From: an uncultured Bacillota bacterium
Lineage (GTDB): Bacteria > Bacillota > Clostridia > Acetivibrionales > DTU013
Length of the DNA: 64,000 nt
Reading direction: 5' to 3'
Assembly (NCBI GenBank): GCA_942493145.1
Contig: OW818679.1
Span: 740,901-804,900 of the forward strand
The notes beneath the pieces were generated by a model. That model was not told where the DNA came from. It made no database searches and saw nothing but the letters and a program-made list of their open reading frames with translations. Shown one piece after another: positions 1,071 to 30,769 of this stretch. Position 1 is the first letter of the stretch; every line of letters begins with the position of its first letter. Made by a program: the position numbers and the translations under genes.

Positions 1071-1136
1071 GAAAAAGTAAATCATGCCAGAGAAAATTAT
1101 CAAGATTCAGCTGTTTATTAATAAGTGGAGGGTATT

Positions 1137-3665: not shown

Positions 3666-3669
3666 TCAG

Positions 3670-4503
3670 ATGAGTAAGCAATATGGAATTGTAATAGATG
3701 TGGCGAAGTGCACCGGATGTTATGCCTGCTACCTCGCCTGTAAGGATGAAAACTGCGGGGAGGAGCATCCCGGTTATACGGCGGCGCAGCCCATGACCGG
3801 CCAGTATTGGCTCAACATTACTGAGGTTGAGCGCGGTACCTTTCCCAAGGTCAAATTAAGCAACGTTCCGAAGCTTTGCGGTCACTGCGACAACCCCAGC
3901 TGTATGATGCAAGCGGAGAACGGCGCGGTATACAAGCGGGAAGACGGAATTGTGATGATTGATCCGGTCAAGGCTGTCGGCCAGAAGCAGATCGTGTATA
4001 CCTGTCCGGAACGGTTGATCTTCTGGAACGAGGAGAAGCAGCTTCCCCAGAAGTGTGACATGTGTGCCCATCTTCTGGATCAGGGCTACAAGATGCCCCG
4101 CTGCGTGGAAATGTGTCCTACGGGTGCGCTAATCTTCGGGGATATGAACGACCCCGACAGCGAGATTTCCAAGCTGGTGGCTGAAAAGAAACCTTATTCG
4201 GCTTATCCGGAGTTCGGCCTGAAGGAAAAAGTCCTATACCTGAACATCCCGAAGAAGTTTGTGGCTGGCACCGTGGCCTTCAAGGAAACCGATCAGTGCG
4301 CCAAGGATGTCAAGGTGACCCTGAAGGGTAACGGCATCGAGCAGTGCATCGAAACGGACGTGTTCGGCGATTTCTGGTTTGATGATCTGGAAAACAAGGC
4401 GGACTACACTTTGGAGATCGCGGCGGAAGGGTACAAGAAAATCAGCCTCACCACCCGTACCATAAATGATGTCAACCTGGGAGAAATTTTCCTGGAAAAA
4501 TAA
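3670..4503 (+). CDS. Fe-S subunit, pyrogallol transhydroxylase small-subunit (BthL)-like, with C-terminal beta-sandwich domain
   Basis: IDVAKCTGCYACYLAC, CGHCDNPSC, AVYKREDGIVMIDP, KCDMCAH..PRCVEMCP and ETDVFGDFWFD. ATG is 4 nt after the athL-like stop. Confidence 0.85.
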   Translation: MSKQYGIVIDVAKCTGCYACYLACKDENCGEEHPGYTAAQPMTGQYWLNITEVERGTFPKVKLSNVPKLCGHCDNPSCMMQAENGAVYKREDGIVMIDPVKAVGQKQIVYTCPERLIFWNEEKQLPQKCDMCAHLLDQGYKMPRCVEMCPTGALIFGDMNDPDSEISKLVAEKKPYSAYPEFGLKEKVLYLNIPKKFVAGTVAFKETDQCAKDVKVTLKGNGIEQCIETDVFGDFWFDDLENKADYTLEIAAEGYKKISLTTRTINDVNLGEIFLEK

Positions 4504-7398: not shown

Positions 7399-8442
7399 AT
7401 GATTATTGATGCAAATATGCACCATCTTCCGGAAGATTTGTTTACAAACGAAGAAGTGCTGAACGGTTTTCTATCGACTGCTCCGCGCGGCTTTGGTGAA
7501 ATAGCATCTGTGGGTATTACCGAGTCCGGCAAACGTCAGATCATTGTGGAAAAACCGAAAGGCTACCAGAACCTGAACTACGTGGAAGGCGACTATTCGC
7601 TCGAAATGAAGATAAAAGCCATGGATGAGAACGGCGTCGACAAAGCTATCCTGCGGGTACCGGTATGGCAGGAATGGCTGCGGCTGGATACCTGCAAGAT
7701 CGTCAATGACAACGCAGCCGATATGTGCAAACGCTCAAACGGCCGTCTCTATGCCAACGCTTGCGTTCCACCATGGGGCGGCAAGGATAATATCTATGAG
7801 TTCGAACGCTGCATCAAGGAGCTCGGCATGGTCGGTGTCCAGCTGGCATGCCATTACGGCCAGCTCTACCTCGACGATGAAGCCTTCAAGCCCTATCTCA
7901 AGGTCATAAACGATATGAAAATCCCTGTCGTCGTACACCACACCCCTGGACCGGTCCGTTGGGAGTCAATGTATGAATACACGAACCTGCGCCGCGAGTT
8001 AGGCCGCGTCACCGACCAGGCTACAGCCGTGGGACGCGAACTCTTCAGCGGCATGTTCGAAGAATTCCCGAACCTGAAGTTCATCCACACCATGCTCGGC
8101 GGCAACTGGTTCGCGAACTACAACCTTCTGGTTCCGAAGCATGGGAAGAAGAAGGAAGCAATGCAGCGTCTGGACATGAGTGAAGGAGAACGTGTTCTGG
8201 GTTATCTGAAGAACAACCTGTACTTCGATACGACCCATCCGGCTTCCTGGGGCAAAGATCAGATCGAATGCGCGATCAAAGTCTGCGGAGCCGACCACAT
8301 CCTGTTTAGCTCGTCGTTCCCCGTATTTTACAACTGGATGTCGGATGGAGTCGATTTCATGAAGTCACTCGATCTCTCAGACAAAGACCGCGAGCTTGTT
8401 ATGAGCGGTAACGCTATCCGTTTGTTCAATCTTAAGGTTTGA
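7399..8442 (+). CDS. Amidohydrolase-2 (ACMSD/LigW-like TIM barrel) protein with non-canonical metal ligands
   Basis: IIDANMH, ELGMVGVQL, PVVVHH, LKFIHTMLGG, LYFDT, HILFSSSFP. Confidence 0.8.
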   Translation: MIIDANMHHLPEDLFTNEEVLNGFLSTAPRGFGEIASVGITESGKRQIIVEKPKGYQNLNYVEGDYSLEMKIKAMDENGVDKAILRVPVWQEWLRLDTCKIVNDNAADMCKRSNGRLYANACVPPWGGKDNIYEFERCIKELGMVGVQLACHYGQLYLDDEAFKPYLKVINDMKIPVVVHHTPGPVRWESMYEYTNLRRELGRVTDQATAVGRELFSGMFEEFPNLKFIHTMLGGNWFANYNLLVPKHGKKKEAMQRLDMSEGERVLGYLKNNLYFDTTHPASWGKDQIECAIKVCGADHILFSSSFPVFYNWMSDGVDFMKSLDLSDKDRELVMSGNAIRLFNLKV

Positions 8443-10666: not shown

Positions 10667-11908
10667 ATGCCAGAGACTATCTATGAACAACGAATAAGGA
10701 TAGCGAATGAAGCTATTCGTCACGAAGAGCCGGAACGTGTTCCTATATGGATTAATTACGGCACCACACCTTTTATGCTGAGCAATGACGGAACGACCTA
10801 CAGAGACGCACTGTACAACCATGAAGCCGCGGCAAAAGCCATTATTACATTTCATCTGGACTTCCAGCCGGATGTTCAGCTTTCCCAACTTTTAAGCGGA
10901 AAAGCAGAAGAAATTGCCGGTACCAAGTATATAGACTGGCCTGGCCGTCCCGGTACTACGCTACGAAATGACAGTATATTTCAGGTACACGAGTATGAGT
11001 TTATGAAAGAGGACGAATATCCTGAGTTGTTGAGCGATTTTACCGGATTTATGCTCCACAAATACATACCTCGCGCGTTTCCCGGTCTTGAGGGTCTATC
11101 CACGGTTCTCAATCCGTCTCCATGCGGATTGATGTATTTCGGGCAATTAGGCAATATGTTCAGACCACAAGCTATGGAAGCTTATGAGAAGCTCATTGAA
11201 ATCGGAAAACTGCAGGATGAGACACAGAAGGACACTTATGCAGTAATGGGCCAGCTCACTCAGCTCGGGTTTCCCCCTATGCTGACAGGCGTCGGTCTCG
11301 TCCCGTTTGATTTGCTCTCCAACTATTTCCGTGGCACCGTTGCTATGTTTGAGGATCTTATCGAGTGCCCGGATATGGTCGAAAAGGCCGTAAACATGTT
11401 TGCGGACCTTCAGATTGCTAATCTCCAGTACCTCCGCTTCGCGCCTTTGCCGGTGAAGCGTGTCATGTTCTGGATGCACAAGGGTATGGATGGATTTATA
11501 AGCCCCAAGCAATTTGATGTCTTGTACTGGAGGCCGTTCCTGAAAGTAATCAATGCATTGGTCGATATGGGGGTCACACCGATCATCTACACCGAAGGCA
11601 ATTACTACAAGAGAATTGACCAAATGAAAGACCTCCCTGCTGGAAAGTGCGTTATTCACTTTGAAAACGTCGACCTGGAATATGCCAAGAAGACTATTGG
11701 CGTAGAAAACTGCATCACAAGCAATTTTCCGATTTATCTTCTGGAACACGGCACAAAGGAACAGGTCATTAATGAAGTAAAGAGGGAAATCGACATATGT
11801 GCGCCGGGTGGCGGTTTTATATTTGAAACAAATGCATCGATTATGGCTGTAAAGCGTGAAAATCTTGAGGTGCTTTATGATACAGTTCGTGAATATGGCA
11901 GGAAATAA
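10667..11908 (+). CDS. URO-D/MtaA-CmuA superfamily protein (candidate corrinoid methyltransferase I or decarboxylase)
   Basis: EEPERVPI, PFDLLSNYFRG, MHKGMDGFISPKQF..YW, CAPGGGFIF. ATG 10667 after AAGGAGG. Confidence 0.75.
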   Translation: MPETIYEQRIRIANEAIRHEEPERVPIWINYGTTPFMLSNDGTTYRDALYNHEAAAKAIITFHLDFQPDVQLSQLLSGKAEEIAGTKYIDWPGRPGTTLRNDSIFQVHEYEFMKEDEYPELLSDFTGFMLHKYIPRAFPGLEGLSTVLNPSPCGLMYFGQLGNMFRPQAMEAYEKLIEIGKLQDETQKDTYAVMGQLTQLGFPPMLTGVGLVPFDLLSNYFRGTVAMFEDLIECPDMVEKAVNMFADLQIANLQYLRFAPLPVKRVMFWMHKGMDGFISPKQFDVLYWRPFLKVINALVDMGVTPIIYTEGNYYKRIDQMKDLPAGKCVIHFENVDLEYAKKTIGVENCITSNFPIYLLEHGTKEQVINEVKREIDICAPGGGFIFETNASIMAVKRENLEVLYDTVREYGRK

Positions 11909-12000: not shown

Positions 12001-13137
12001 ATGTTTGGAAAGAAAAAAGGCTTAAATTACCTATCTTTATTTATTTTATTGGTCCTGGTGTCCGTGGTATTTTTAAGTGGTTGCGCGCAACAGGAACAAC
12101 AGCCGGCTACTCAATCCAATACTACTGTCCAACAGGAACAACAGCCGACTGCTCAATCTACTACTCCTGTCCAACAGGAACAAGAGCCGGTAGTATTTAA
12201 TGTGAACTTATCGGCTTCGGAGCAAGCACACAAGTCAGTGATTAATTTTGGCAAGGCTCTTGAAGAACGGACCGGTGGTAAAGTAAAATTAAAGTTGTAT
12301 TATAACAGTTCATTGCTGCCAATCCCTGACCAAATAACAGGTTTGCAAAGCGGTATTGCTGACATTTCCAATATGACGGCTTCAACTTTTCTTGGTGCTT
12401 TGCCGTTAAATGATATGCTCGGCTGGCCATTTATGGGGTATTCCAATTATAATGATGTTTTTGCCTTGCACATGAAGCTCTTGCAGGATGTACCGGAGTT
12501 GGGAGCTGAGTTTAGCGATATAGGGCTTCGGGTATTTTCAGGGTTTGCGATGCCCCCGCACGATTTGCTGATAGCCAGTAACAAAAAAGTGCAAAGTCCC
12601 GCTGATATTAAAGGAATGAAAATTGTTTCAACCAAGCCCGTTTCGTCAGCCATGATTCAGAAATGGGGCGGGGCACCTATAGCAATTCAGATACCGGATT
12701 ATTACATGTCCCTGGAAAGGGGTGTTGCGGACGGAGTCCTACTCAACTTGCATGGTACTCTTGCTTTCGGGATAACACCTCTGGTGAAGCAGTATGTGTC
12801 ATTTGGCACTCAAGGATTAACTGTAGAGAATGTGCTTTATGTAATGAGTGAGAATGCCTGGAATAAGATGACTCCTGAGACCCAAAAGATTTATATGGAA
12901 GAAGCCGCCAAGCTCAATTTAGAAGATAGTGCAACAGTTGGCAACAATGTTAAGAAAACTACTGAAATACTTGAAAAAACCGGTGCACTTACCGTTCTTA
13001 CGCCGGAACAGGTTGCCGAATTCTCTAAAGATGCGCCTGAAATTCATAAAGAAAAGATCGCTGAACTGGAGAAACAAGGTAAACCGGCACAGAAAGTTTA
13101 TGACGCCATCAGGAAAGCGGCAACAGAAATGAAATAA
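12001..13137 (+). CDS. dctP: TRAP transporter substrate-binding lipoprotein (DctP family)
   Basis: Lipobox FLSGC, ERTGGKVKLKLY, DYYMSLERGVADG, YVMSENAWNKM. Followed by dctQ and dctM. Confidence 0.9.
   Translation: MFGKKKGLNYLSLFILLVLVSVVFLSGCAQQEQQPATQSNTTVQQEQQPTAQSTTPVQQEQEPVVFNVNLSASEQAHKSVINFGKALEERTGGKVKLKLYYNSSLLPIPDQITGLQSGIADISNMTASTFLGALPLNDMLGWPFMGYSNYNDVFALHMKLLQDVPELGAEFSDIGLRVFSGFAMPPHDLLIASNKKVQSPADIKGMKIVSTKPVSSAMIQKWGGAPIAIQIPDYYMSLERGVADGVLLNLHGTLAFGITPLVKQYVSFGTQGLTVENVLYVMSENAWNKMTPETQKIYMEEAAKLNLEDSATVGNNVKKTTEILEKTGALTVLTPEQVAEFSKDAPEIHKEKIAELEKQGKPAQKVYDAIRKAATEMK
12088..12189 (+). repeat. 42-nt tandem repeat (about 2.4 copies) encoding the Q/T-rich linker after the lipobox
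   Basis: CAACAGGAACAACAGCCG.. starts at 12088, 12130 and 12172. Confidence 0.9.
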
Positions 13138-13166
13138 TAACAACTTTCTATGGGTGGTAGTTTACC

Positions 13167-13317
13167 TGAGGAAATGTCACCCTATATCGAACCGGTTTGA
13201 GATTAGCTCAAACCGGCTTCGATTACCTTGATTCACCTTGCGACGGCTAATTTTTCATTAGCTGTTACCCGTCGCAAACTATATGGGCCACTTTCATTTT
13301 TAGGTGGCATTTCCTCA
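13167..13317 (+). ncRNA. Structured intergenic element (three-way junction) between dctP and dctQ; function unknown
   Basis: Outer stem 13167-13181/13303-13317 (14 Watson-Crick pairs + 1 GU). Inner hairpins at 13186-13223 and 13238-13277. Confidence 0.45.
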
Positions 13318-13368
13318 AAATATTGATCATCCGAGTTGACTTTCTGGAGATAGGGAGGAATTACATAA

Positions 13369-13845
13369 GTGAAAATCTTGAAAGGGATAAATTTGACTGC
13401 GAAAGTCAGCGGCTATATCGGCGGGGCAGCCGTCGTTGTTTTAATGCTCCTAATGGTCGCTGATATCCTAATGCGCAGGTTTTTTGCCATGCCAATCGTC
13501 GGGGCAACCGAGATTGCCCAATTGGCTATGATTATTATTTTTGTAGGCGTTGCGTATACCACGCTGGAAAACAAGCAAGTGAAAGTGGATTCCTTGATGG
13601 AATGTTTCCCGGTTAAAGTGCAGAACGTTATTGATATGATAATATATCTCTTCACTTTATGCTTTGATCTGTGGCTGGGTTGGCAAACCTACCAGATGGG
13701 TTTCCTTAAGCAGAACCAGATTTATTCCATGCTTAAATTGCCGGTATCCCCTTTTTACTGGGTGTTGTCTGCTGCTTTTTTCCTCACCGCCATTGCAGTT
13801 ATTGGAAAGTTGATTATTAAAGCGAGGGAGGTGGCGGGTAAATGA
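13369..13845 (+). CDS. dctQ: TRAP small permease DctQ
   Basis: Four hydrophobic segments, DILMRRFFAMPIVGATE, HV-like QVKVD motif. GTG start after GGAGG. Confidence 0.9.
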   Translation: MKILKGINLTAKVSGYIGGAAVVVLMLLMVADILMRRFFAMPIVGATEIAQLAMIIIFVGVAYTTLENKQVKVDSLMECFPVKVQNVIDMIIYLFTLCFDLWLGWQTYQMGFLKQNQIYSMLKLPVSPFYWVLSAAFFLTAIAVIGKLIIKAREVAGK

Positions 13846-15140
13846 GTCCAGAAGTAGTAGGAATAATTGGAGTGATAATGATTCTTGTCCTGCTGGCTTT
13901 CCGTATGTATATCGGTTCAGCCATGGGCCTGATTGGATTAATCGGCATTATTTTGCTTCGGGGTATTACGCCGGCTAATAGCATTGCAGGATTCATACCC
14001 TTCCAAAACATCAGTGCTTACTCCATGACCGTAATACCCATGTTTGCCTTTATGGGGGTGATCATTTCCGAGACTGAAATTGGCACCGACTTGTTTCAAA
14101 CGGCAAACAAGTGGATCGGTCATGTTCGCGGCGGGCTGGCTTCGGCTAGTATTGTGGCCTGCGGGCTGCTGGGGGCCATCATCGGTTCCAGTACCATCTC
14201 AACCATTGTGATGGGTAAAATCGCTTTGCCGGAAATGCGGAAGAATGGATATGACGATCTGCTCTCTACCGGTACCATTGCTGCCGGTTCGCCCCTGGCC
14301 ATCATTATTCCACCTAGTATGCCCTTTGTTTTATACGGGATATTGACGGAACAGTCGATTGGCAAGCTGTTTATTTCCGGTGTTCTTCCCGGCGTGCTGA
14401 TGATGATTGCCTACGTTGCCGTAATCGCAGTCATGTGCCGGGTAAAGCCCAAGCTGGCTCCTGCCGAAGTCCAGAGCTTTTCTTTAAAAGAAAAACTACT
14501 TTCACTGAAAAGTACCTGGGCTATGCTGGCACTGGTAGTGCTAGTGCTGGGCGGTATCTATGGAGGCTTCTTTACCCCCACTGAATCCGGCGCTATCGGT
14601 GCCCTTGGAGCATTGATCATTGGTATGGTCAAGAGAAAAATAAACTTGAAAGTCTTTATGCGTTGTGTTAAGCAAGCAGCTTATCTGTCCGGAATGATTC
14701 TGTACTTGCTTGCCGGGACCTTTATTTTCAATTCCTTCATAACTATGAGCAATTTGCCGGAATTGATTACCTCCTTTGTGACAGGCTTAGCGGTACCGGT
14801 TTTCGTGGTTCTTCTGGCCATAGGTGTGATGTATCTGATTTTAGGCTGTTTTTTACCCGAATATCCCATGATGGTATTGACAGTGCCCCTTCTTTTCCCT
14901 GCCATTATGAACCTGGGTGTTGACCCTATCTGGTTTGGCTTATTCGTTGTCTTATTGATGGCGCTGGGGTCAATCTCACCACCCATTGGCTTGACTGTTT
15001 TTATTTTAGGAGGCATTACAGGGGTATCTGTAAACAAAATATTCAGGGGGGTCATGCCCTTCCTTGTTGTTACAATCGTGATCATTGTGTTGATAGTGAT
15101 TTTCCCGTCGCTGGCCACCTTCCTGCCCAGTTTGATGTGA
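13842..15140 (+). CDS. dctM: TRAP large permease DctM
   Basis: IPMFAFMG, IIIPPS, LFISGVLPG, FTPTESG, PIWFG, SPPIG. Confidence 0.95.
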   Translation: MSPEVVGIIGVIMILVLLAFRMYIGSAMGLIGLIGIILLRGITPANSIAGFIPFQNISAYSMTVIPMFAFMGVIISETEIGTDLFQTANKWIGHVRGGLASASIVACGLLGAIIGSSTISTIVMGKIALPEMRKNGYDDLLSTGTIAAGSPLAIIIPPSMPFVLYGILTEQSIGKLFISGVLPGVLMMIAYVAVIAVMCRVKPKLAPAEVQSFSLKEKLLSLKSTWAMLALVVLVLGGIYGGFFTPTESGAIGALGALIIGMVKRKINLKVFMRCVKQAAYLSGMILYLLAGTFIFNSFITMSNLPELITSFVTGLAVPVFVVLLAIGVMYLILGCFLPEYPMMVLTVPLLFPAIMNLGVDPIWFGLFVVLLMALGSISPPIGLTVFILGGITGVSVNKIFRGVMPFLVVTIVIIVLIVIFPSLATFLPSLM

Positions 15141-15392: not shown

Positions 15393-15469
15393 TCTTGACG
15401 AACCTAAAATTTTTCCCATAATACCTAAACTGAGCCTCCTTGTATAAGGGCAGGCGCTATGTTATTCTA
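15393..15469 (+). promoter_or_regulatory. Conserved upstream element, copy 2, preceding the SDR-crotonase-thiolase-BKACE operon
   Basis: 46/51 nt identical to 995-1045. ACCTAAA at 15402 and 15423. TTGTAT-N18-TATTCT with TG extension. Extra related unit TGACAAACCTGAA at 15380. Confidence 0.7.
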
Positions 15470-15497: not shown

Positions 15498-16283
15498 ATG
15501 ACTGATTACCGTGAATTATTCAATCTTAAAAATAAACGCGCCGTTGTGATCGGAGGAGCTGGAGGCATCGGTGGCGAAATTGCCGAAGGGTTCGCCGCGG
15601 TCGGCATGAACGTTGCAATTGCCAGCCGAAGCATGGAAAAGCTTCAAAAGCAGGCGGACAAAATCAAGGAAAACACCGGCGTATCGGTAAAGTGCTTTAC
15701 AGTTGATGGCAGCAGCGAGGACTCTGTGGCAAAGCTGTATGACGAGGTAATAGCTGCATTTGGAGGAGTAGATATCCTGGTCAATTCCCAGGGTTTGAAC
15801 AAGAAGTTTTCCGCCCTTGAACATCCTGTCAACGAATGGGATGAGATGTTCGCGGCAAATGCCAAAAGCGTCATGCTCACCTGCAAGTACTTTGGAAAAT
15901 ACATGAAAGAGCAGCATTACGGGCGGATTATAAACATCAGCTCTATTGGAGCCATACGCTCCAAGCAAAGTGATATCTCTGTGTGCTACGGTTCCACCAA
16001 AGGCGCGGTTAACGCCTATTCAGTGAATCTTGCGGCAGGTTGGGCGGAATATGGCATCACCGTCAATTGCATCGGACCCATCATAACCGAGACTGATATG
16101 ATGAAGCCCCTCTTCGAAAAAAATCCCGAGCTTCGTGCCGGCACCATCGCCAGAGTTCCCATCGGTCGCCTTTGCCAGCCGGAGGACTGCGCGGGCATTG
16201 CCTTGTTCCTCGCGTCAGACGCGTCGGCGTTTGTTACCGGCCAAATCATCTATGCCGACGGCGGGCTCATGACTCTGCAGTAA
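15498..16283 (+). CDS. Classical SDR oxidoreductase (gluconate-5-DH/KduD-like; candidate phloroglucinol-reductase-type)
   Basis: GGAGGIG, ASRS (basic residue suggests NADP), DILVNSQG, INISS, YGSTK, ADGG. Confidence 0.9.
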   Translation: MTDYRELFNLKNKRAVVIGGAGGIGGEIAEGFAAVGMNVAIASRSMEKLQKQADKIKENTGVSVKCFTVDGSSEDSVAKLYDEVIAAFGGVDILVNSQGLNKKFSALEHPVNEWDEMFAANAKSVMLTCKYFGKYMKEQHYGRIINISSIGAIRSKQSDISVCYGSTKGAVNAYSVNLAAGWAEYGITVNCIGPIITETDMMKPLFEKNPELRAGTIARVPIGRLCQPEDCAGIALFLASDASAFVTGQIIYADGGLMTLQ

Positions 16284-16327: not shown

Positions 16328-17170
16328 ATGCCAAAAGCAAAGTACAATTATGTAAAAATGCTCACGCTTGAGGATCTTCAGGAGAAGTACAAGGATTTCT
16401 TCTTTTTTAAGTTCAAGGACGGAATCCTCGAAATGAAGATGCACTCTGACGGCGGCCCTGTCGTGTGGAGCTATCAGATGCACCACGCGTTAGCAGAGGT
16501 TTACACCGATATTGGTCACGCAAGGTGGGTTGAGTGCCTCATAATCACCTCCACACCGCCCTACTGGATCCACGGCAGCGACAACGCGTCTTTCCAGGAG
16601 GTTGAGCAGTCCCCGGACAATGACCAGCGCTTCAATGTCCAGATATACGATACCCTTAAAGTAGTTGAAAACTTCCTCAGCGACATTGAGGTTCCCACAA
16701 TCGCCGCAATCAATGGCCGCGGCTTCCACTGGGAAATGTGCCTGCTCAGCGATATCACCTTGTGCAGTCCCGACTTCATCCTGCAGGATGACCATTTCGG
16801 CATGAAGGACGGACACGTGCCCGGAGACGGCATGACCATGATCCTGCAACAACTCTGCGGCCTCAAACGCGGCGGGTACATGTCGTATATGTGCCATGGC
16901 ATAGACGCCGAGGAGTGCCTTCGAATTGGTGCGGTCAACGAAATCGTTGACGCCGGTAAAATTCTTGACAGGGCCTGGGAAATTGCCGAACAGCACATCA
17001 TGACAAGGACACGTTCCTGCCGGCGCATGACCCACTATAATATCATGCGTCCTTGGAAGGCCATCTTCGAGCGCGACTTCCGCATTAACGTCTACTCCGA
17101 AATGTATTCCTTCAACCTCTCCGGCAGCGCGCATGATTTTGAGTACATAAAGTACGAGGGCGAAGAATAA
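16328..17170 (+). CDS. Crotonase-superfamily beta-diketone hydrolase (6-oxocamphor hydrolase-like), paralog 1
   Basis: VVWSYQMH, IEVPTIAAINGRGFH, DDHF...VPGDG, GAVNEIV, RAWEIA and C-terminal SE match recalled OCH W40/H45/H122/H145/D154/E244. Confidence 0.8.
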   Translation: MPKAKYNYVKMLTLEDLQEKYKDFFFFKFKDGILEMKMHSDGGPVVWSYQMHHALAEVYTDIGHARWVECLIITSTPPYWIHGSDNASFQEVEQSPDNDQRFNVQIYDTLKVVENFLSDIEVPTIAAINGRGFHWEMCLLSDITLCSPDFILQDDHFGMKDGHVPGDGMTMILQQLCGLKRGGYMSYMCHGIDAEECLRIGAVNEIVDAGKILDRAWEIAEQHIMTRTRSCRRMTHYNIMRPWKAIFERDFRINVYSEMYSFNLSGSAHDFEYIKYEGEE

Positions 17171-17213
17171 ATAAGCAGATTATAAACTGATATAAGAAAG
17201 CGACGTGATCCAT

Positions 17214-18395
17214 ATGAACCATTTAAGAGAGGCTGCGATTGTCTCCGCGGTCCGCCTGCCTGTGGGCAGAGTCGGAGGTGCGTTGGCGGGTATCCGGCCT
17301 GAAAAGCTTGGCGGAATGATTGTAAAAGAGGCTGTGCGCCGGGCGGGTATTGATCCCGAAATCATCGACGAGGTCATATTCGCCTCCTGCGATAATGAAG
17401 ACCTTAAGATCGCGGCAAGAGTAGTCGCGCTTGAGGCGGGGCTCCCGTACACTATTCCCGCTTATCAGATACAAAGAGGATGCGCTTCTTCCCTGACAGC
17501 TCTGTGGGACGGCGCCATGATGATACAGACAGGCTTCGCGGACACCATAGTCTGCGGCGGCTGTGAGAGTACCACTATGGCGCCCTATCTTATGAACAAG
17601 CCGACAAGGGCTTATTCCGTGGCGCCTATGTCCTGGTGTGAGCCTGTGTTCTCCCCCAAGGAGCCATACGGTAATCTCCCAAACGGCCCAACAGCCGACG
17701 AGATTGCAAGGCGATATGGCATAACCCGCGAGGATTGCGACGAATTTTCCGTTAACAGCCACTGCAAGGCCGCTATAGCCTATAAAAACGGATATTTTGA
17801 CAGCCAACTGCTGCCCGTCGAGGTTCCCCAGAAGGGTGGGAAGACCCTCCTTTTTAACCGTGACGAGCCGTTGCGCGATGACTGTACAATGGATGATCTG
17901 ACAAAGCTCAAGCCTTCTTTTTCCAAAGACGGCGTCTCCACCGCGGGCAACAGTTCGCCCCTGACAGACGGAGCTTCATGCGTCATCCTGATGGAACGCG
18001 GCAAAGCCGAAGCTCTCGGACTTGACATTATTGCGATTCTGAAAAACTTTGCCGATGCCGGTTGTGAGCCAATGGTAATGGGTGAGGGTCCCATTTATGC
18101 TACAAGGAAACTCCTCGCCAAAACCGGCCTTACAATAGACGATTTTGATCTCATTGAGATGAACGAAGCCTTTGCCACTCAGTCGATCCGATGCGCCAGG
18201 GAACTGGGCATGGATCCCGAAAGGCTTAATGTCAATGGAGGCGCTATTGCTTTAGGCCATCCTTTTGCAGCAACAGGTACGATACTTGTTGCAAAACTTG
18301 TACATGAAATGCGCCGGCGGGACGCCAAACGCGGACTGGTTACTTTCTGCGTCGGCGGCGGTCTGGGCGTTTCAGCCATGTTTGAAAAACCATAA
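17214..18395 (+). CDS. Acetyl-CoA C-acyltransferase (thiolase)
   Basis: QRGCASS (catalytic Cys), NEAF, GAIALGHPFAATG, FCVGGG. Confidence 0.95.
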   Translation: MNHLREAAIVSAVRLPVGRVGGALAGIRPEKLGGMIVKEAVRRAGIDPEIIDEVIFASCDNEDLKIAARVVALEAGLPYTIPAYQIQRGCASSLTALWDGAMMIQTGFADTIVCGGCESTTMAPYLMNKPTRAYSVAPMSWCEPVFSPKEPYGNLPNGPTADEIARRYGITREDCDEFSVNSHCKAAIAYKNGYFDSQLLPVEVPQKGGKTLLFNRDEPLRDDCTMDDLTKLKPSFSKDGVSTAGNSSPLTDGASCVILMERGKAEALGLDIIAILKNFADAGCEPMVMGEGPIYATRKLLAKTGLTIDDFDLIEMNEAFATQSIRCARELGMDPERLNVNGGAIALGHPFAATGTILVAKLVHEMRRRDAKRGLVTFCVGGGLGVSAMFEKP

Positions 18396-18425
18396 ATAAT
18401 TGTTAAATTAAGAGAGGAATGCCTT

Positions 18426-19241
18426 ATGAAAACTATAATCACTGCAGCCCTGACAGGGGCTATTGCACCAAAAGCAAAGAACCCCAACATACCAACCACA
18501 CCAAGGGAGATCGCTGAAGACGGCATTCGCTGCTGGAAAGCAGGAGCTTCTGTACTGCATCTGCATATGAGAGATGACGATTTTAAAGGAACCATGGATA
18601 AAAACCGTTTCGCTGAGACTGTGAACATCTTGCGCGGATCATGTGACGCGATCCTGAACCTTACAACTTCCGGTGAACTGGGAATTCCGGACGAGCGCCG
18701 CATGGAACACGTCATCATGCTGAAGCCCGAGATGGCAACATTTGACGCAGGTACGATTAACGCCGGCGACGGTATTTTTGAAAATAGCATCCCTTTTTTG
18801 TATAAGCTCGGGAAAGTGCTTATTGAAAACGGTGTAAAACCCGAAGTTGAAATCATGGATCTTGGCTTTATAAGCGAAGCGCAGCACTATATAAGCAAGG
18901 GCGTGCTTGTGAACCCTGTCCACTACCAGTTTGTGCTGGGCTTCGGCATCTCAGGAGCACCGGCGACACCCGAAAATCTGCTCTATATGAAGAGCAAGAT
19001 CCCATCCGATTCTACATGGTCTGCGTTCGGCACCGGCAATTCGCATCTGCCGATAATGTATACCGCGATCGCTGCTGGAGGGCATATACGAGTAGGTCTT
19101 GAAGATAATCTCTTCTACGGGCCGGGTGTACTCGCGACGAATGAGATGCTCGTACAGCGTGCCGGAAGGGTTGTTAAAGAGTTCGGCAATGAAGTTGCAA
19201 CACCTGCTGATGCCAGAGAGATATTAGGTCTGCGCAAATAA
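18426..19241 (+). CDS. Beta-keto acid cleavage enzyme (BKACE / DUF849, Kce family)
   Basis: IITAALTG, NIPTTPREIA, HLHMRD (Zn His pair), KPEVE, GGHIRVGLEDN. Confidence 0.92.
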   Translation: MKTIITAALTGAIAPKAKNPNIPTTPREIAEDGIRCWKAGASVLHLHMRDDDFKGTMDKNRFAETVNILRGSCDAILNLTTSGELGIPDERRMEHVIMLKPEMATFDAGTINAGDGIFENSIPFLYKLGKVLIENGVKPEVEIMDLGFISEAQHYISKGVLVNPVHYQFVLGFGISGAPATPENLLYMKSKIPSDSTWSAFGTGNSHLPIMYTAIAAGGHIRVGLEDNLFYGPGVLATNEMLVQRAGRVVKEFGNEVATPADAREILGLRK

Positions 19242-19250
19242 CGGTCAAAA

Positions 19251-19397
19251 TCGCCGGTTAAGCGGCGCAATTTGGACAACGACACAGTCTCCCCCACGGT
19301 CGTTGTTCAAACGCCACGCGTAAGCGGGGCGCGCGAAGCGTAGCGTAGGGCGGATTCATTCCGCCCGTAGCGAGGGGGCATGGGGGCTTGCCCCCAT
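19251..19397. repeat. GC-rich multi-hairpin intergenic element containing a GTAG-type REP-like palindrome
   Basis: Hairpins at 19272-19310, GTAG+GGGCGGA-TTCAT-TCCGCCC at 19345-19366, and ATGGGGGC-TT-GCCCCCAT at 19380-19397. Single copy in the window. Confidence 0.45.
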
Positions 19398-19441
19398 TGG
19401 AAATCGAGTGACGGCGCACTGGTGCCGGAATGGAGGAAACC

Positions 19442-20401
19442 ATGAAAACAGGAAAAATAGCATTTGTAGGCGCTGGCCAAATCGGCAGCGGATTGGCACT
19501 CAATTGCATTACCCACGGCATGCCAGTCGTCCTGCAGACAAGAAAGCAGACAGAGCTGGTAAAGAGCCGCATTGATTCGGGGTTGGTATTTTTCGTAGAT
19601 AGTGGCATCATTTCACAGGAAGAGGCCGACAAAGCCGCAAAGCTTGTTACAATTACTACATCCATTGAGGAAGCAGTCACCGGCGCCTATATGATACAGG
19701 AGTCCGGTCCGGACAGTATTGAGTTGAAGCATTCTCTTATTGAGCAAATCGAAGCTTATGCGCCTGAGGATGCCATTATTGCTACAAGCACCTCCAGCCG
19801 TTCCATTACGGAGGTGTTTTCAAAAGCGAAGCATCCTGAACGTTGCATGGGCGGACATCCCTATAACCCTGCCTATCTGATACCGCTGGTGGAGATCACA
19901 AAGGGCGAAAAAACCTCTGATGAATACGTAGTAAAGGCTAAAGCGTTATATGAGCAAATGGGTAAAGTACCCACAGTTCTAAACAAAGAGGTAATCGGCT
20001 TTATAGCAAACCGCTACCAGAGCGCGATCCATCGCGAGGCGGTAGACCTTGTGGAAAATGGGATATGCTCGGTCGAAGACGCTGATAAGGCCTTGGTCTA
20101 TAGCGTCGGTCTGCGCTGGAGCGTTCTCGGTCAATTCCTTTCCATGCATCTTGGCGCTGCTCCGGAAGGCTTGGGCGGTTTTAACGAGAAATATCATATC
20201 GACGTAACAAAGCCCGATGGACGTTTGAGTAATATGCCCACCTGGACGACTTTCCCTGAGAAATGGAGCGAGCATGCCAGTGTCGGTATTGAGGAAGCCA
20301 TTGCAAAACGCGACACCTCGACAGGAAACGACATCGCTTCCATAGAAAAATGGAGAGACAACATGTTGGTTGAAACACTTCGTCTCCATGGCATACTGTA
20401 A
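19442..20401 (+). CDS. 3-hydroxyacyl(-CoA) dehydrogenase family protein, carnitine/L-gulonate dehydrogenase-like
   Basis: VGAGQIG, IQESGPD, ATSTS, GGHPYNPAYLIPLVE, GFIANR, GLRW. Confidence 0.88.
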   Translation: MKTGKIAFVGAGQIGSGLALNCITHGMPVVLQTRKQTELVKSRIDSGLVFFVDSGIISQEEADKAAKLVTITTSIEEAVTGAYMIQESGPDSIELKHSLIEQIEAYAPEDAIIATSTSSRSITEVFSKAKHPERCMGGHPYNPAYLIPLVEITKGEKTSDEYVVKAKALYEQMGKVPTVLNKEVIGFIANRYQSAIHREAVDLVENGICSVEDADKALVYSVGLRWSVLGQFLSMHLGAAPEGLGGFNEKYHIDVTKPDGRLSNMPTWTTFPEKWSEHASVGIEEAIAKRDTSTGNDIASIEKWRDNMLVETLRLHGIL

Positions 20402-20446
20402 CAGACTAATGTATCAGATCATTCAGAAAGTAGAGGAGAGATTATT

Positions 20447-21307
20447 ATGGCTTTACAACCTTACATTCACGTTGAAACCTTTGAAGAATACAAGGAACGG
20501 TTTAAGGATTTTGCATACATGGAGCGTACAGAGGATGGCATTATTCTGGTGCGTCTTCACTGGAAGGGAGGACCTGTTGTCTGGAGCTATCAGACACAAC
20601 ATTGTTACGGTGAGCTTTGGACAGCAATAGGTCATGACAAGAAGAATGAAGTGATGATCCTTACTTGTCAGGATCCTTACTGGATGGTTCAGAAGAGCGA
20701 TCCTGCATCATTCGATGAAGTAGAAGATTCTACAGACACTGCACTTAAATATAACTGCAATATTCCTGACACAATGAATTTTGTTGAAAACTTCATCAAT
20801 GACATTGAGATCCCGGTTATTGCCGCGGTAAACGGAATAGGACAGCATTTCGAATTTGCATTGATGTCTGATATTACGATTTCTGACCCCGACTTTTATT
20901 TCTCCGATGCTCACTTCTCCCATAATATTGTACCCGGCGATGGTATGAATTTCTCTTATCGCACCTGCCTCGGAATCAAGCGGTCAACTTACATGGCGTA
21001 TATGGAGCCGAAAATTGACGCAAAAACTGCGCTGGAATGGGGCCTTATCCATGAAATCGTCGAGCATGACCAACTCATTCCGCGTGCCTATGAGATTGCT
21101 AATCACATCATGAAAACAAATCGCGCTGTCCGCCGTCTGACGCATGAACTTGCAATGCGTCCTTGGAAGAGGGCACTTCAGGACGATGAGCGCGTACACG
21201 TTCTTTCAGAAATGTATGCTGTTCAGCTTGAAGCAACACGCCACAATTTCGACAAAATTGCTGCTGATTTTACCGGGGATCGGCCTCAGCATAAGCAGGA
21301 CAAATAG
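20447..21307 (+). CDS. Crotonase-superfamily beta-diketone hydrolase (6-oxocamphor hydrolase-like), paralog 2
   Basis: GGPVVWSYQ, IEIPVIAAVNGIGQH, DAHFSHNIVPGDG, GLIHEIV, RAYEIA, LSEMY. Clear paralog of 16328-17170. Confidence 0.8.
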   Translation: MALQPYIHVETFEEYKERFKDFAYMERTEDGIILVRLHWKGGPVVWSYQTQHCYGELWTAIGHDKKNEVMILTCQDPYWMVQKSDPASFDEVEDSTDTALKYNCNIPDTMNFVENFINDIEIPVIAAVNGIGQHFEFALMSDITISDPDFYFSDAHFSHNIVPGDGMNFSYRTCLGIKRSTYMAYMEPKIDAKTALEWGLIHEIVEHDQLIPRAYEIANHIMKTNRAVRRLTHELAMRPWKRALQDDERVHVLSEMYAVQLEATRHNFDKIAADFTGDRPQHKQDK

Positions 21308-21383
21308 TAGTCTGCAATTCTTGATGAATTCTCATGGCCTTTTCAGAAAGCTTACCTCGGAATTTGATGAAAGGGGGGATAGT

Positions 21384-22442
21384 ATGAACATACTGGTTTT
21401 AAACCCGGGCTCTACCTCGACGAAGGTCGCAATATACCGTGATACGGAGGAACTGCACAAAAAGACACTCTCCCATTCCAGGGAGGAGCTGTCGGCTTTT
21501 CATAACCTGATGGACCAGCTGGACTTCAGGTATGGGCTAGTTATGGATTTTCTGAAAGAGGTTGGCTTTGAGCCTGCAATGCTCGATTGTATCATGTCCC
21601 GCGGCGGTTCCCCGCCAAATGTCAATTCAGGTGCAACGATCATCGGAGACCGTTTGGTCCAGGCTCTCCGTGAGCGTCCCAAGGAACCGCACCCAGCCTC
21701 CCTCGGACCGATCATAGCCGATCGGATCTCAAAGAGTGCAGGAATTCCGGCCTATATCTATGACCCCATCACCGCCGACGAGATGAACCCGATGGCCAAG
21801 GTATTCGGAATAAAAGGAATCGAACATGACAGCATGTGCCATTTCCTGAATTCGCATGCCATGGGTATCTCCGTGGCAAAGGAGCTGGGCAGGCCATTTG
21901 AAGAGCTGAACCTGATTGTTGCCCATTTCGGCGGCGGAAACTCTCTTTGCTTCTGGTCCAAAGGACGTCCGACAGATGTAGTCCCCGGTGATGCCGGCAC
22001 ATTTTCCTCCGAGCGCTGCGGTCCCATCCGTGGAGAGCGATTGCTTCAGCTGTGCAAAGAACATGGCTTTGAAACGCTTTCAGGCTGGTTCCACGGAAAG
22101 GGAGGACTTGTTTCCCTTTTGGGAACCAATGACCTGCGCGATGTGGAGAAGAAGATACAAGCTGGCGACAGCTACGCGCTTCTGGTTTTACAGGCCATGG
22201 CATACCAGCTGTCCAAAAACATCGCATCCCTGTTCCCTGTAACCTGCGGTAATGTGGATGGTATCATCCTGACAGGCGGAGGTGCTCACCTTGAACGCCT
22301 TGTCAACGAAATCAAAAACAGGCTTGCCTATCTGAACACCCCCATATACGTGCGACCCGGGGAAAACGAGATGCAGTCTCTTGCCGAAGGCGCGTACCGC
22401 GTCATGCGTGGAGAGGAAGACGCCAAGGAATATGTGGGATAG
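21384..22442 (+). CDS. buk: Butyrate kinase
   Basis: MNILVLNPGSTSTK, RGG, DEM, AHFGGGNS, FSSER, IILTGG, PGENEMQSLA. Confidence 0.92.
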   Translation: MNILVLNPGSTSTKVAIYRDTEELHKKTLSHSREELSAFHNLMDQLDFRYGLVMDFLKEVGFEPAMLDCIMSRGGSPPNVNSGATIIGDRLVQALRERPKEPHPASLGPIIADRISKSAGIPAYIYDPITADEMNPMAKVFGIKGIEHDSMCHFLNSHAMGISVAKELGRPFEELNLIVAHFGGGNSLCFWSKGRPTDVVPGDAGTFSSERCGPIRGERLLQLCKEHGFETLSGWFHGKGGLVSLLGTNDLRDVEKKIQAGDSYALLVLQAMAYQLSKNIASLFPVTCGNVDGIILTGGGAHLERLVNEIKNRLAYLNTPIYVRPGENEMQSLAEGAYRVMRGEEDAKEYVG

Positions 22443-22513
22443 AAAAGCACTGGATATGGAAAATGAAACGGAAAGAATGCGCGGGACATAAACAGAAAGA
22501 AAGGATTGTTGAT

Positions 22514-23431
22514 ATGGAACTGCATAGCTTTGAAGAAATATTGGCCATGGCGGGCGGAAGCGGCAAAAAAAGCATTATGGCTGTGGCAGGCGCCGGAAAG
22601 GCCGCCGTTATCGACGCAGTGCTCGAAGCCGTAGACCGTGGGGTCGTGGAACCTGTCCTGGTCGGTGAACCGGAGGATATCCAGGAATTGCTCCGGGAGA
22701 GAGGAAGAAGCGTTTCGGATTTCAATATCGTCAAAACAGCAGTGGGGCAGACCCCTGCGGAAACCGCCGTTGAGATTATAAAGGAGGGCAGCGCCAATTT
22801 CCTGATGAAGGGGTCGGTGGAGACCTCGGACCTGCTGAGGCCGGTCGTAAAAAAGGAAAACGGGCTTCGCACCGGACGGACGATCTCACATGTTGCCTTT
22901 TATCAGCTGCCCTTCTACCACAAGCTCATAATAACAACAGACGGAGGAATATGCGCGTACCCTGACCTCGCAATGAAGAAGGACATAATAATGAATGCTC
23001 TTGATGCACTGCATCTGCTGGGATATGAAAAGCCTAATGTTGCAGTGCTTTGCTGCAAGGAAACCGTTGACAAGAACATGATAGAAACACAGGATGCATA
23101 TGCGCTTAAGGAAATGAGCGAACGCGGTGAATTGGGAAGCTGTGTGGTTGAGGGCCCGATATCCTACGACCTTGCAATGAGCAAGGAAAGGGCGAAACTT
23201 AAGAAATACGATTGCCCGTATTCCGGTGATTTCGACATTCTTGTGGCGCCGAATATCCATGCGGGTAATATTCTTGGTAAGTGCCTTGAAATACTGCCCG
23301 GCGTCACCATGGCAAGCTATGTTTCCGGAGCCCGTATACCCATCGTGCTGACTTCCAGGGCAGCGCCCGCGATGGAACGAATTACCTGCATTGCATTGGC
23401 GGGCATTATCGCCACGCGCCACGGCGCCTGA
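22514..23431 (+). CDS. ptb: Phosphate butyryltransferase
   Basis: LMKGSVET, TDGG, VEGPISYDLA, DILVAPNIHAGNILGK, PIVLTSRA. Confidence 0.9.
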   Translation: MELHSFEEILAMAGGSGKKSIMAVAGAGKAAVIDAVLEAVDRGVVEPVLVGEPEDIQELLRERGRSVSDFNIVKTAVGQTPAETAVEIIKEGSANFLMKGSVETSDLLRPVVKKENGLRTGRTISHVAFYQLPFYHKLIITTDGGICAYPDLAMKKDIIMNALDALHLLGYEKPNVAVLCCKETVDKNMIETQDAYALKEMSERGELGSCVVEGPISYDLAMSKERAKLKKYDCPYSGDFDILVAPNIHAGNILGKCLEILPGVTMASYVSGARIPIVLTSRAAPAMERITCIALAGIIATRHGA

Positions 23432-23674: not shown

Positions 23675-24001
23675 ATGAAGAAATATGGAATGCTTATCGA
23701 TGTATATTATTGCACTGGCTGTCATACGTGCGAGGTTGCCTGTCAGCAGGAGAATGGTTTTGAAGCAGAGCAATTCGGCATCAAGGTGACCGAACATATT
23801 CTTAAGAAAAGAAACGGGTTCACAATTGACTATGTTCCGTATATGACGGATCTGTGCAACTTCTGCATGGCCAGGGTTGCAGATGGCAGAAAACCTTCCT
23901 GTGTTAAACACTGTCTGTCAAGATGCATGTCTTTTGGTCCAATTGAGGAAATTATGGAAGAGGCTAGGAACAGCAAAAAAGGAATGATATTTATTAAATA
24001 G
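23675..24001 (+). CDS. Small 4Fe-4S dicluster protein, partner of the downstream Mo/W enzyme
   Basis: YGMLIDVYYCTGCHTCEVAC...CNFC....PSCVKHC..CMSFG. Confidence 0.85.
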   Translation: MKKYGMLIDVYYCTGCHTCEVACQQENGFEAEQFGIKVTEHILKKRNGFTIDYVPYMTDLCNFCMARVADGRKPSCVKHCLSRCMSFGPIEEIMEEARNSKKGMIFIK

Positions 24002-26588: not shown

Positions 26589-26590
26589 CT

Positions 26591-30507: not shown

Positions 30508-30769
30508 GTTCAACCACCATTCACTTAACAGATTAAATCCATATTAACATAAATTTCATCCGGATTGCTAGTGGCCGGTAAGAGTTATAACTTTAGGATA
30601 TGCAGGCCACAACTCATGGAATCCAAAGCGGTTGAATTTTATCATGAATCAAACAACTTGCAAGAGTCGTGTTTTGGATATTGGACTTTCCACAAGACAG
30701 GGACTATGATTGACATGTGTTCATTTGTATCTTTATGGTAATTTAAATATCAAAATTACGGAGGAATTT

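Follow-up and report, generated by a model that had tools for sequence, protein, structure and literature searches.

Two paralogous genes, A and B, in a 64,000-nucleotide stretch of an uncultured Bacillota bacterium (the window; contig OW818679.1 of assembly GCA_942493145.1) encode proteins that we assign with high confidence to the beta-diketone hydrolase family of 6-oxocamphor hydrolase (OCH) and its Anabaena homolog ABDH, which has the crotonase fold. The function that we favor, with moderate confidence, is that of CoA-independent, cofactor-free retro-Claisen C-C hydrolases that open the ring of dihydrophloroglucinol. We infer this substrate, the CoA independence, and the order of the reactions from the protein family, the catalytic residues, and a conserved gene context. 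The broader proposal, to which we give an even chance, is that a large clade of OCH-type, metal- and CoA-independent retro-Claisen hydrolases serves as the ring opener of a second phloroglucinol pathway, one independent of the ring-opening enzyme dihydrophloroglucinol cyclohydrolase (DPGC).

Two OCH-like proteins in a phloroglucinol-type operon

A and B lie in a tight run of genes on the + strand, with gaps of 20–190 nt. The operon, with a candidate promoter, is organized in the following order:

15395..15422, + strand: promoter-like site 5' of the short-chain dehydrogenase/reductase (SDR) gene (TTGACG-16-CATAAT, 10/12 matches; weak evidence)
15498..16283, + strand: SDR, putative ring reductase (phloroglucinol to dihydrophloroglucinol; Pfam adh_short_C2)
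16328..17170, + strand: A, OCH-like beta-diketone hydrolase of the A-type, 280 aa, putative dihydrophloroglucinol ring hydrolase (Pfam ECH_1, PDB matches, AlphaFold2/Foldseek)
17205..18395, + strand: acetyl-CoA C-acetyltransferase (thiolase), splits acetoacetyl-CoA (Thiolase_N/C; TIGR01930 at 423 bits, above cut-off)
18426..19241, + strand: beta-keto acid cleavage enzyme (BKACE), putative triacetate:acetyl-CoA cleavage, the TAL role (Pfam BKACE, 1.9e-95)
19430..20401, + strand: lambda-crystallin-type 3-hydroxyacid dehydrogenase, putative 3-hydroxy-5-oxohexanoate dehydrogenase, the TfD role (3HCDH_N/3HCDH)
20447..21307, + strand: B, OCH-like beta-diketone hydrolase of the B-type, 286 aa, paralog of A (similarity to A, Pfam ECH_1, PDB matches, AlphaFold2/Foldseek)
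21381..22442 (start approximate), + strand: butyrate kinase (Buk; NF002834 at 373 bits and TIGR02707 at 346 bits, both above cut-off)
22463..23431, + strand: phosphate butyryl/acetyltransferase (phosphotransbutyrylase, Ptb; PTA_PTB; NCBIfam phosphate butyryltransferase models at 264–278 bits)

Plausible ribosome-binding sites precede A (AAGGA 5' of 16328) and B (GAGGAG 5' of 20447). Site counts in a promoter and terminator scan of the region were no higher than in shuffled sequence. The initial annotation had labeled this a fermentation operon, a label corrected here: it is a phloroglucinol-type catabolic operon that adjoins a pyrogallol-phloroglucinol transhydroxylase homolog. That context favors dihydrophloroglucinol among the substrates that had been listed for A and B, which are the sole unassigned hydrolases of the operon.

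Family membership and catalytic residues

A and B are 46% identical across 269 residues (E 2e-84), and all of the motifs attributed to them in the initial annotation were found. These are W-x4-H in A (W47...H52) and W-x5-H in B (W46...H52, with Q51 at the position of OCH His45), AAxNG-x3-H (AAINGRGFH134 in A and AAVNGIGQH134 in B), H-x10-D in A (H156...D167) and H-x8-D in B (H156...D165), both inside VPGDG, and a C-terminal Glu (E258 in A and E255 in B). Equivalents of the OCH catalytic residues are W47, H52, H134, H156, D167, and E258 in A and W46, Q51, H134, H156, D165, and E255 in B. The proposed likeness to the OCH catalytic set was borne out by an alignment of 195 full-length homologs with OCH (residues 7–244) and ABDH (residues 17–239), the latter two taken from HMMER alignments. 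The set is invariant or nearly so, the His45 position excepted: equivalents of OCH W40, H122, and H145 are kept in 195/195 homologs, that of D154 in 194/195, and that of E244 in 191/195. At the His45 position, 110 A-type proteins have His and 85 B-type proteins have Gln, while ABDH keeps His.

The best PDB sequence matches were ABDH (2j5g/2j5s, 5e-29) and OCH (1o8u/1szo, 1e-26) for A, and OCH (5e-30) and ABDH (5e-29) for B. These E-values beat those of any CoA-dependent hydratase by at least eight orders of magnitude, the best such hydratase in PDB giving 5e-11 for A and 2e-18 for B. Pfam assigned ECH_1 alone to both proteins. AlphaFold2 models were obtained with predicted local distance difference test values of 86.7 (A) and 84.4 (B), and the top 12 Foldseek matches in PDB were all OCH or ABDH chains for both, with template modeling (TM) scores of 0.78–0.82 (0.79–0.82 for the A model) and root-mean-square deviations (rmsd) of 2.0–2.5 Å. 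A clostridial crotonase (5z7r) gave TM scores of 0.62–0.65 and rmsd values of 9.6–14.7 Å against the same models. The superposition on OCH that had been suggested as a check thus leaves OCH and ABDH closest to both proteins, at an rmsd of ~2 Å.

In an alignment with the hydratase PaaF of Escherichia coli (NC_000913.3), the first hydratase Glu is kept (E136), whereas His156 takes the position of the second and PGDGM that of PGAGG. The two-Glu catalytic pair of enoyl-CoA hydratases (Glu144/Glu164 in the rat enzyme; motifs GxGxE and PE) is therefore incomplete in A and B. The cut-offs of NCBIfam hydratase models (292–354 bits) were not reached, the best scores being 73 and 92 bits, and no curated NCBIfam family matched at cut-off for A, B, the SDRs, or the cyclases, fumarylacetoacetate hydrolase (FAH)-family protein, and cupin described below. 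Judged by sequence, A and B fall outside the canonical enoyl-CoA hydratases. The initial placement in the OCH/ABDH branch, rather than among enoyl-CoA hydratases, is supported by sequence, predicted fold, and catalytic residues alike; a grouping with the CoA-dependent enzymes was looked for and did not occur, OCH and ABDH being closer and the second Glu being His.

Gene content around OCH-like genes

Homologs of A and B were collected (516 and 660 clusters at E ≤ 1e-10), and a scan of one genome per species yielded 79 loci (individual loci are given L numbers below). Neighboring open reading frames (ORFs) were called and annotated by BLAST against reference proteins and were separately clustered without labels; counts refer to genes within 10 kb of the OCH-like gene. 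The loci occur in Clostridia, Lachnospiraceae, Oscillospiraceae, Sedimentibacter, Desulfobacterota, Dehalococcoidales, Acidobacteriota, many Actinomycetota, and Alpha- and Gammaproteobacteria, including Paraglaciecola, Alteromonas, Marinovum, Roseovarius, and Sphingomonas. The neighbors were found as follows:

SDR: 61/79 loci
3HCDH-type dehydrogenase: 57/79 loci
Small cupin: 34/79 loci
FAH-family hydrolase: 25/79 loci (23 by clustering)
BKACE: 23/79 loci (25 by clustering)
LysR: 21/79 loci
Transhydroxylase large subunit: 17/79 loci
Cyclase: 13/79 loci

Within 3 kb, the dehydrogenase (47 loci) and the SDR (46 loci) lead all neighbors, and the same two lead at 400 bp. BKACE and FAH occur together in 0 loci, and one or the other is present in 48. 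SDR, dehydrogenase, and BKACE or FAH are found together in 34 loci without a cyclase within 10 kb and in nine loci with one.

Clusters in Firmicutes contain SDR, OCH-like, thiolase, BKACE, dehydrogenase, and Buk genes, and sometimes Ptb. Those in Actinomycetota have A, often with B directly after it, then dehydrogenase, SDR, cupin, and BKACE, and several transhydroxylase paralogs and an ADP-forming acyl-CoA synthetase are often nearby. Alphaproteobacteria have a minimal module of LysR, an OCH-like A gene, an SDR resembling phloroglucinol reductase (PGR), dehydrogenase, and FAH (L032, L036, L038, L041–L044, L027, and L015). In marine Gamma- and Alphaproteobacteria, the minimal module is joined by a second module of two cyclases, a cupin, a second PGR-like SDR, and a second dehydrogenase (L001, L016, L017, L019–L022, L025, L028, L037, L040, L045, and L048). 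The best PDB match of both Paraglaciecola SDRs is 5g4k (E 6e-49 and 2e-55), which we take to be the PGR structure of Clostridium sp. strain ATCC BAA-442; that a PGR structure from this strain exists has been published (PMC10470551).

The locus closest to the window, L009, has an A protein that is 92–93% identical and the same gene order, in a metagenome-assembled genome (MAG) labeled "Accumulibacter sp."; the presence of a Clostridia-type operon there probably reflects a binning error. The small cupin (~111–125 aa, Cupin_2; e.g., L001:7876-8223, L016:15694-16029, L049:13571-13924, and L067:10906-11283) is the third most conserved neighbor, including in loci of strict anaerobes, and is a possible tautomerase or decarboxylase. 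No homolog of it was found in the window by tblastn (E > 1). Isolated OCH-like genes (L011, L013, L077, L079, L082, and L085) have neighborhoods that offer no functional hint.

A proposed second route from phloroglucinol

In the published phloroglucinol pathway, the SDR PGR reduces phloroglucinol to dihydrophloroglucinol, DPGC converts this to 3-hydroxy-5-oxohexanoate, the SDR TfD forms triacetate, and TAL, a BKACE and close Kce homolog, produces acetoacetate and acetoacetyl-CoA (PMC10470551). DPGC, which in Clostridium scatologenes is a Mn-dependent enzyme of the cyclase family (PF04199), is the only ring-opening enzyme known for this pathway (PMC10470551). The roles of reductase, ring hydrolase, 3-hydroxyacid dehydrogenase, and beta-keto acid cleavage enzyme are all encoded together in the window operon. 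Compared to the published pathway, the hydrolase and dehydrogenase come from other families and the SDR is a distant PGR relative. Kce (2y7d, 5e-63) is the best PDB match of the window BKACE, which also matches the NCBIfam Kce and 3,5-dioxohexanoate transferase models, both below cut-off. The window dehydrogenase is closest in PDB to lambda-crystallins (3f3s and 3ado, ~1e-35) and not to Hbd; besides lambda-crystallins, only a pyridoxal-pathway enzyme passed E 1e-25. Lambda-crystallins are L-gulonate 3-dehydrogenases, whose substrates are free 3-hydroxy acids.

We propose a pathway that runs from SDR to OCH-like enzyme to lambda-crystallin-type dehydrogenase to BKACE or FAH. A tripartite ATP-independent periplasmic (TRAP) system would import trihydroxybenzoate or trihydroxybenzene, the upstream transhydroxylase homolog would isomerize pyrogallol to phloroglucinol, and the SDR would reduce phloroglucinol to dihydrophloroglucinol (5-hydroxycyclohexane-1,3-dione), a cyclic beta-diketone. 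As a non-homologous replacement of DPGC, the OCH-like enzyme would then add water at one ring carbonyl, and retro-Claisen C-C cleavage would give 3-hydroxy-5-oxohexanoate. By analogy with OCH, whose catalytic set is His145/Asp154, His122, Glu244, and Trp40, the His156/Asp167 dyad (Asp165 in B) would activate the water, and His134, Trp47 (46), and Glu258 (255) would stabilize intermediates, with the enolate being stabilized and protonated. The dehydrogenase would oxidize 3-hydroxy-5-oxohexanoate to 3,5-dioxohexanoate (triacetate), BKACE would convert triacetate and acetyl-CoA to acetoacetate and acetoacetyl-CoA, and the thiolase, phosphotransacylase, and butyrate kinase would convert the CoA esters and conserve ATP. 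The conserved core, in which a reductase and a dehydrogenase flank the hydrolase and are followed by cleavage of a 3,5-dioxo acid, mirrors the redox-neutral logic of the known pathway.

In proteobacterial clusters, a FAH-family hydrolase is found in the place of BKACE (Pfam FAA_hydrolase 1.4e-57 for L016:17004-17993; also L043:12652, L027:4098, and L015:7791). FAH-family enzymes hydrolyze linear 3,5-dioxo acids such as fumarylacetoacetate, and triacetate is the simplest acid of this kind. This enzyme probably hydrolyzes triacetate, so that no CoA is needed for the pathway to run; on the proposed route, no CoA ester is formed by modules that consist of SDR, OCH-like gene, dehydrogenase, and FAH. 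With FAH covering the last step of the minimal proteobacterial module, only the OCH-like protein is left there as a candidate ring opener; the same argument extends to the window, which has BKACE in the place of FAH. The frequent linkage to transhydroxylase genes points to phloroglucinol as the SDR substrate. The earlier suggestion that A and B open a cyclic beta-diketone supplied by the adjacent SDR is therefore backed by comparative genomics, with the putative substrate sharpened to dihydrophloroglucinol. Dihydrophloroglucinol is prochiral, so the OCH-like enzyme would desymmetrize it; OCH desymmetrizes its symmetrical substrates. By the taxa seen, the BKACE variant is found mainly in Firmicutes, Actinomycetota, and Desulfobacterota and the FAH variant in Proteobacteria; the pathway would be spread across Clostridia, gut and rumen Lachnospiraceae and Oscillospiraceae, Actinomycetota, Desulfobacterota, and marine Alpha- and Gammaproteobacteria.

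Several points weigh against dihydrophloroglucinol ring opening by A and B. The window SDR is no close ortholog of the characterized PGRs, its best PDB match being gluconate 5-dehydrogenase (1vl8, E 7e-47) ahead of 5g4k (E 1.8e-34), and with this distance its substrate could be another polyphenol. Thirteen loci, mostly of marine Proteobacteria, have two cyclase-family genes beside the OCH-like gene, where the OCH-like module may act on another substrate or the two enzyme types may be redundant. The diketones for which OCH and ABDH are known are bicyclic and non-enolizable, and dihydrophloroglucinol is strongly enolized, while DPGC, the known enzyme for this substrate, needs Mn2+. The proposed function does not account for the retention of two paralogs. 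A cyclase-family gene could also be present elsewhere in the genome, outside the window. In favor of the replacement, tblastn within the 64-kb window with two cyclase-family (PF04199) proteins from L001, which are not authenticated DPGC, found no homolog (E > 1). A profile search with the marine cyclases, made for DPGC naming, returned only the names "cyclase family" and "kynurenine formamidase."

A-type and B-type paralogs

Identity within the family is 71% among A-type and among B-type proteins and 49% between the two types. The initial annotation had noted that the paralogs differ by two residues before PGDG, which we confirmed and refined to an A-type-specific insertion (110/110 A-type and 0/85 B-type proteins; absent from OCH and ABDH). 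It had also described the His45 position as His in one paralog and Gln in the other, with the His shifted by one. The first part holds and splits the family, but the shifted His is no family feature: the residue after the Gln is His in 33/85 B-type proteins and Asn in 36/85, and with such poor conservation it is unlikely to substitute for His45. Type-specific conserved differences (A/B) lie beside the catalytic residues, namely H52/Q, W135/Y, L152/F, and the insertion, which carries His163. From these residues, we infer that the pockets of A and B may differ. The two types appear to be paralogs with the same or overlapping functions and somewhat different pockets; since dihydrophloroglucinol is prochiral, they could be enantiocomplementary or substrate-specialized desymmetrizing enzymes.

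A third subgroup is 45–54% identical to A (L066, L067, L068, L071, L077, and L086) and is hosted by rumen and gut Firmicutes (Pseudobutyrivibrio and Anaerovibrio) and Dehalococcoidales, with a cupin and an SDR adjoining in L067, L068, and L071. One protein, P0008 (L006:10001-11473, 490 aa), matches both A and B; its contig has numerous split genes, suggesting a frameshifted assembly and not a genuine fusion. Another, P0196, has an A-like N-terminal half and a B-like C-terminal half and is either a recombinant or an assembly chimera.

Alternative readings

It is fairly unlikely that A and B open the ring of some other reduced polyphenol, each perhaps a different one. Candidates are reduced hydroxyhydroquinone, tetrahydroxybenzene, or methyl- or acyl-phloroglucinol, and cyclohexane-1,3-dione from resorcinol. 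The distant relationship of the window SDR to characterized PGRs would fit such a substrate. Marine loci pair a cyclase module (Cyc1, Cyc2, SDR2, and HCDH1) with the OCH-like module (SDR1, OCH-like gene, HCDH2, and FAH), which suggests two substrates. The conserved A/B differences next to catalytic residues (W135/Y, H52/Q, and the insertion with His163) and an acetylene-hydratase-related molybdopterin enzyme, just downstream in the window and beside OCH-like genes in L053 and L076, point the same way. However, the downstream 3-hydroxyacid dehydrogenase, BKACE or FAH, and thiolase fit exactly the C6 chain from dihydrophloroglucinol, and the phloroglucinol-forming transhydroxylase homolog is linked in the window as well as in the 17 loci counted above. 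Cyclohexane-1,3-dione would give 5-oxohexanoate, which is neither a beta-hydroxy nor a beta-keto acid, and the downstream enzymes would not be needed.

Hydrolysis of a linear beta-diketone, with the ring opened otherwise, is a doubtful alternative and one to which we give little weight. The substrate would be triacetate, yielding acetoacetate and acetate, or acetylacetone from its decarboxylation. Triacetate hydrolysis was raised by the Paraglaciecola locus, as loci of this type have cyclase-family genes and no BKACE within 10 kb, and an OCH-like triacetate hydrolase would complete their pathway; the role could also belong to one of the two paralogs. This reading was downgraded because the FAH-family hydrolase fills that step and is mutually exclusive with BKACE. 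The two behave as alternatives at one step, with the OCH-like gene found with either, and the 34 cyclase-less loci already have one of them for the linear 3,5-dioxo acid. Under this reading, no ring hydrolase would remain for the window and the Firmicutes clusters, and a fermenter that hydrolyzed triacetate would lose the CoA-ester energy that it could conserve through BKACE.

Similarly improbable is that A and B form an obligate hetero-oligomer (a mixed hexamer) as the active enzyme. The two genes are directly adjacent in ~8 Actinomycetota loci (L049, L050, L053, L055, L057, L061, L070, and L083), at least 12 assemblies have both, and the 11 assemblies with B only are mostly incomplete MAGs, at least two such genomes having an A-type gene elsewhere (e.g., L011/L072 and L058/L087). 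The commonest state, however, is A only (45 of ~75 assemblies). Firmicutes clusters with otherwise the same gene set have A only (L004/L010 and L009), B only (L007/L072, L073, L074, and L080), or both (the window), which argues against an obligate heteromer. In addition, the His/Asp/His/Glu/Trp set is complete in both paralogs, which speaks against either being a degenerate subunit with a scaffolding role.

A last reading takes A and B for common CoA-dependent crotonases or hydrolases in an operon for butyrate fermentation (thiolase, Hbd, Crt, Ptb, and Buk); the ECH_1 assignment and the operon's thiolase, 3HCDH-family protein, phosphotransbutyrylase, and butyrate kinase would lend themselves to it. 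It is highly improbable and was rejected, being opposed by the catalytic residues (the His in place of the second hydratase Glu, with all NCBIfam hydratase models below cut-off), by the closest relatives in sequence and fold (the CoA-independent OCH and ABDH), and by the gene context, in which the 3HCDH protein is of the lambda-crystallin-like type active on free 3-hydroxy acids, Bcd and Etf are absent from the operon, and alpha- and gammaproteobacterial clusters (Paraglaciecola, Alteromonas, Roseovarius, and others) pair the OCH-like gene with SDR, dehydrogenase, and FAH without a thiolase, butyrate kinase, or other CoA-handling gene.

Relation to known enzymes and significance

A and B share with OCH of Rhodococcus sp. 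NCIMB 9784 the crotonase fold, the positions of the Trp, His, His/Asp dyad, and C-terminal Glu, and presumably CoA-independent retro-Claisen chemistry. They differ from it in being only 28–35% identical and forming a distinct clade, in the Gln of the B-type at His45 and the loop insertion of the A-type, and in belonging to an anaerobe's polyphenol catabolic operon, whereas OCH acts in aerobic camphor degradation. The proposed substrate is a monocyclic, enolizable 5-hydroxy-1,3-dione, and that of OCH is bicyclic and non-enolizable. ABDH (Alr4455), which is CoA-independent and for which we know of no physiological role, is the best sequence match for A and shares the fold and the positions of the catalytic His, His, Asp, and Glu. 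It is ~31–33% identical and has Phe where OCH and the A/B family have Trp. The proposed reaction (dihydrophloroglucinol + water to 3-hydroxy-5-oxohexanoate) and the place in the pathway between reductase and dehydrogenase are those of DPGC, but its Mn2+-dependent PF04199 fold is unrelated to the ECH_1 domain of A and B, making this a functional analogy and not homology.

The initial annotation regarded the fold as new to anaerobic aromatic ring cleavage. At the level of the fold this does not hold, given the established 2-ketocyclohexanecarboxyl-CoA hydrolase (BadI) and 6-oxocyclohex-1-ene-1-carbonyl-CoA hydrolase (Oah/BamA), CoA-dependent members of the crotonase superfamily in the anaerobic benzoyl-CoA pathway that open an alicyclic beta-keto ring hydrolytically; it does hold for the CoA-independent OCH subfamily. 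The substrates of BadI and Oah/BamA are CoA thioesters, and both enzymes fall in other branches of the superfamily; A and B, which have no complete hydratase Glu pair, resemble the CoA-independent branch. In anaerobic steroid degradation, the ring A beta-diketone hydrolase SRAH is an amidohydrolase_2 enzyme; the paper on it notes that no gene has yet been identified for cyclohexane-1,3-dione hydrolase (PMC11780191). SRAH and the crotonase-fold A and B, from different families, would have in common that an anaerobe uses them to open a cyclic 1,3-diketone by hydrolysis, with no CoA involved. We found no description in the literature of OCH-like enzymes in phloroglucinol, resorcinol, or hydroxyhydroquinone degradation, with most subscription journals outside the search. 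In the A/B system, pathway logic and enzyme type would both be familiar, and their combination and physiological role would be new.

Phloroglucinol is a hub intermediate in the anaerobic breakdown of flavonoids, tannins, and algal phlorotannins. If the proposed role is correct, genome surveys based on DPGC miss organisms with the OCH-like alternative, and the polyphenol-degrading capacity of gut, rumen, sediment, and ocean is underestimated. Genomes with a phloroglucinol reductase and "no DPGC" would be explained; marine SAR116 bacteria, in a 2026 preprint, reportedly have such a reductase without DPGC, read there as a detoxification dead end, a gap that this clade could fill. A marker set for annotation would be SDR, OCH-like gene, lambda-crystallin-type dehydrogenase, and BKACE or FAH. 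This would also be the first widespread physiological role for the OCH/ABDH family, known mainly as a biocatalysis curiosity, and would provide metal-free desymmetrizing C-C hydrolases for monocyclic 1,3-diones.

Other genes in the window

The operon is flanked by genes that recur at other OCH-like loci:

1125..3665, + strand: pyrogallol-phloroglucinol transhydroxylase large subunit homolog (PDB 4v4c, E 5.9e-231, full length; Pfam AhtL-like_1st)
3580..4503, + strand: transhydroxylase small (Fe-S/Ig-like) subunit homolog, true start probably 3' of 3580 (Fer4_11 and CarboxypepD_reg)
4788-5999: conserved 403-aa protein with no Pfam match, following the transhydroxylase genes
6084-7271: 7-bladed beta-propeller "lactonase," following the 403-aa protein
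7399..8442, + strand: Amidohydrolase_2 protein (Pfam Amidohydro_2, 1e-25)
10607-11908: URO-D-like protein, 433 aa, between a LysR regulator and the TRAP transporter (no NCBIfam match)
12001..15140, + strand: TRAP transporter DctP/DctQ/DctM (DctP Pfam match)
23675-24001: 4Fe-4S protein, 108 aa, preceding the second molybdopterin enzyme
24045-26588: second molybdopterin enzyme, 847 aa, just 3' of the operon (best PDB match acetylene hydratase 2e7z, E 5e-100)

The 4v4c structure is the large subunit of the Pelobacter pyrogallol hydroxytransferase. The transhydroxylase subunit pair is also found beside OCH-like clusters in L004, L008, L031, L047, and others. The 403-aa protein and the "lactonase" recur near transhydroxylase or OCH-like genes in L004 (87% and 82% identical), L055, L084, and L085 and are possibly part of the transhydroxylase system. 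The Amidohydrolase_2 protein, possibly an aromatic-acid decarboxylase feeding the pathway, is 77% identical to a neighbor of the OCH-like gene in a Desulfobacteraceae MAG (L003/L018), an identity across phyla that suggests horizontal transfer of the island. Amidohydrolase_2 genes are near OCH-like genes in only ~5/87 annotated loci (three to four independent places). A LysR regulator is also encoded 5' of the operon, before the URO-D-like gene, distant homologs of which (24–29% identity) are near OCH-like genes in L058, L061, L083, and L084. The TRAP transporter probably takes up a carboxylated substrate, and TRAP genes neighbor OCH-like genes in L003, L046, L049, and L064.

The pair of molybdopterin enzyme and 4Fe-4S protein also adjoins OCH-like genes in L053 and L076 (62–63% identity). 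A 123-aa ORF (26518-26889) overlaps the end of the molybdopterin enzyme gene, is 67% identical to its C-terminal ~87 residues, and looks like a duplicated gene remnant. Farther downstream, a 704-aa Oxidored_FMN and Pyr_redox_2 flavoenzyme of the enoate/2,4-dienoyl-CoA reductase type (37770-39884) adjoins a solute-binding protein, with a flavodoxin/4Fe-4S protein (30710-31996) and a Zn alcohol dehydrogenase nearby; these genes may serve further polyphenol metabolism. A GerA operon at 49.7–53.7 kb of the window marks the host as a spore former.

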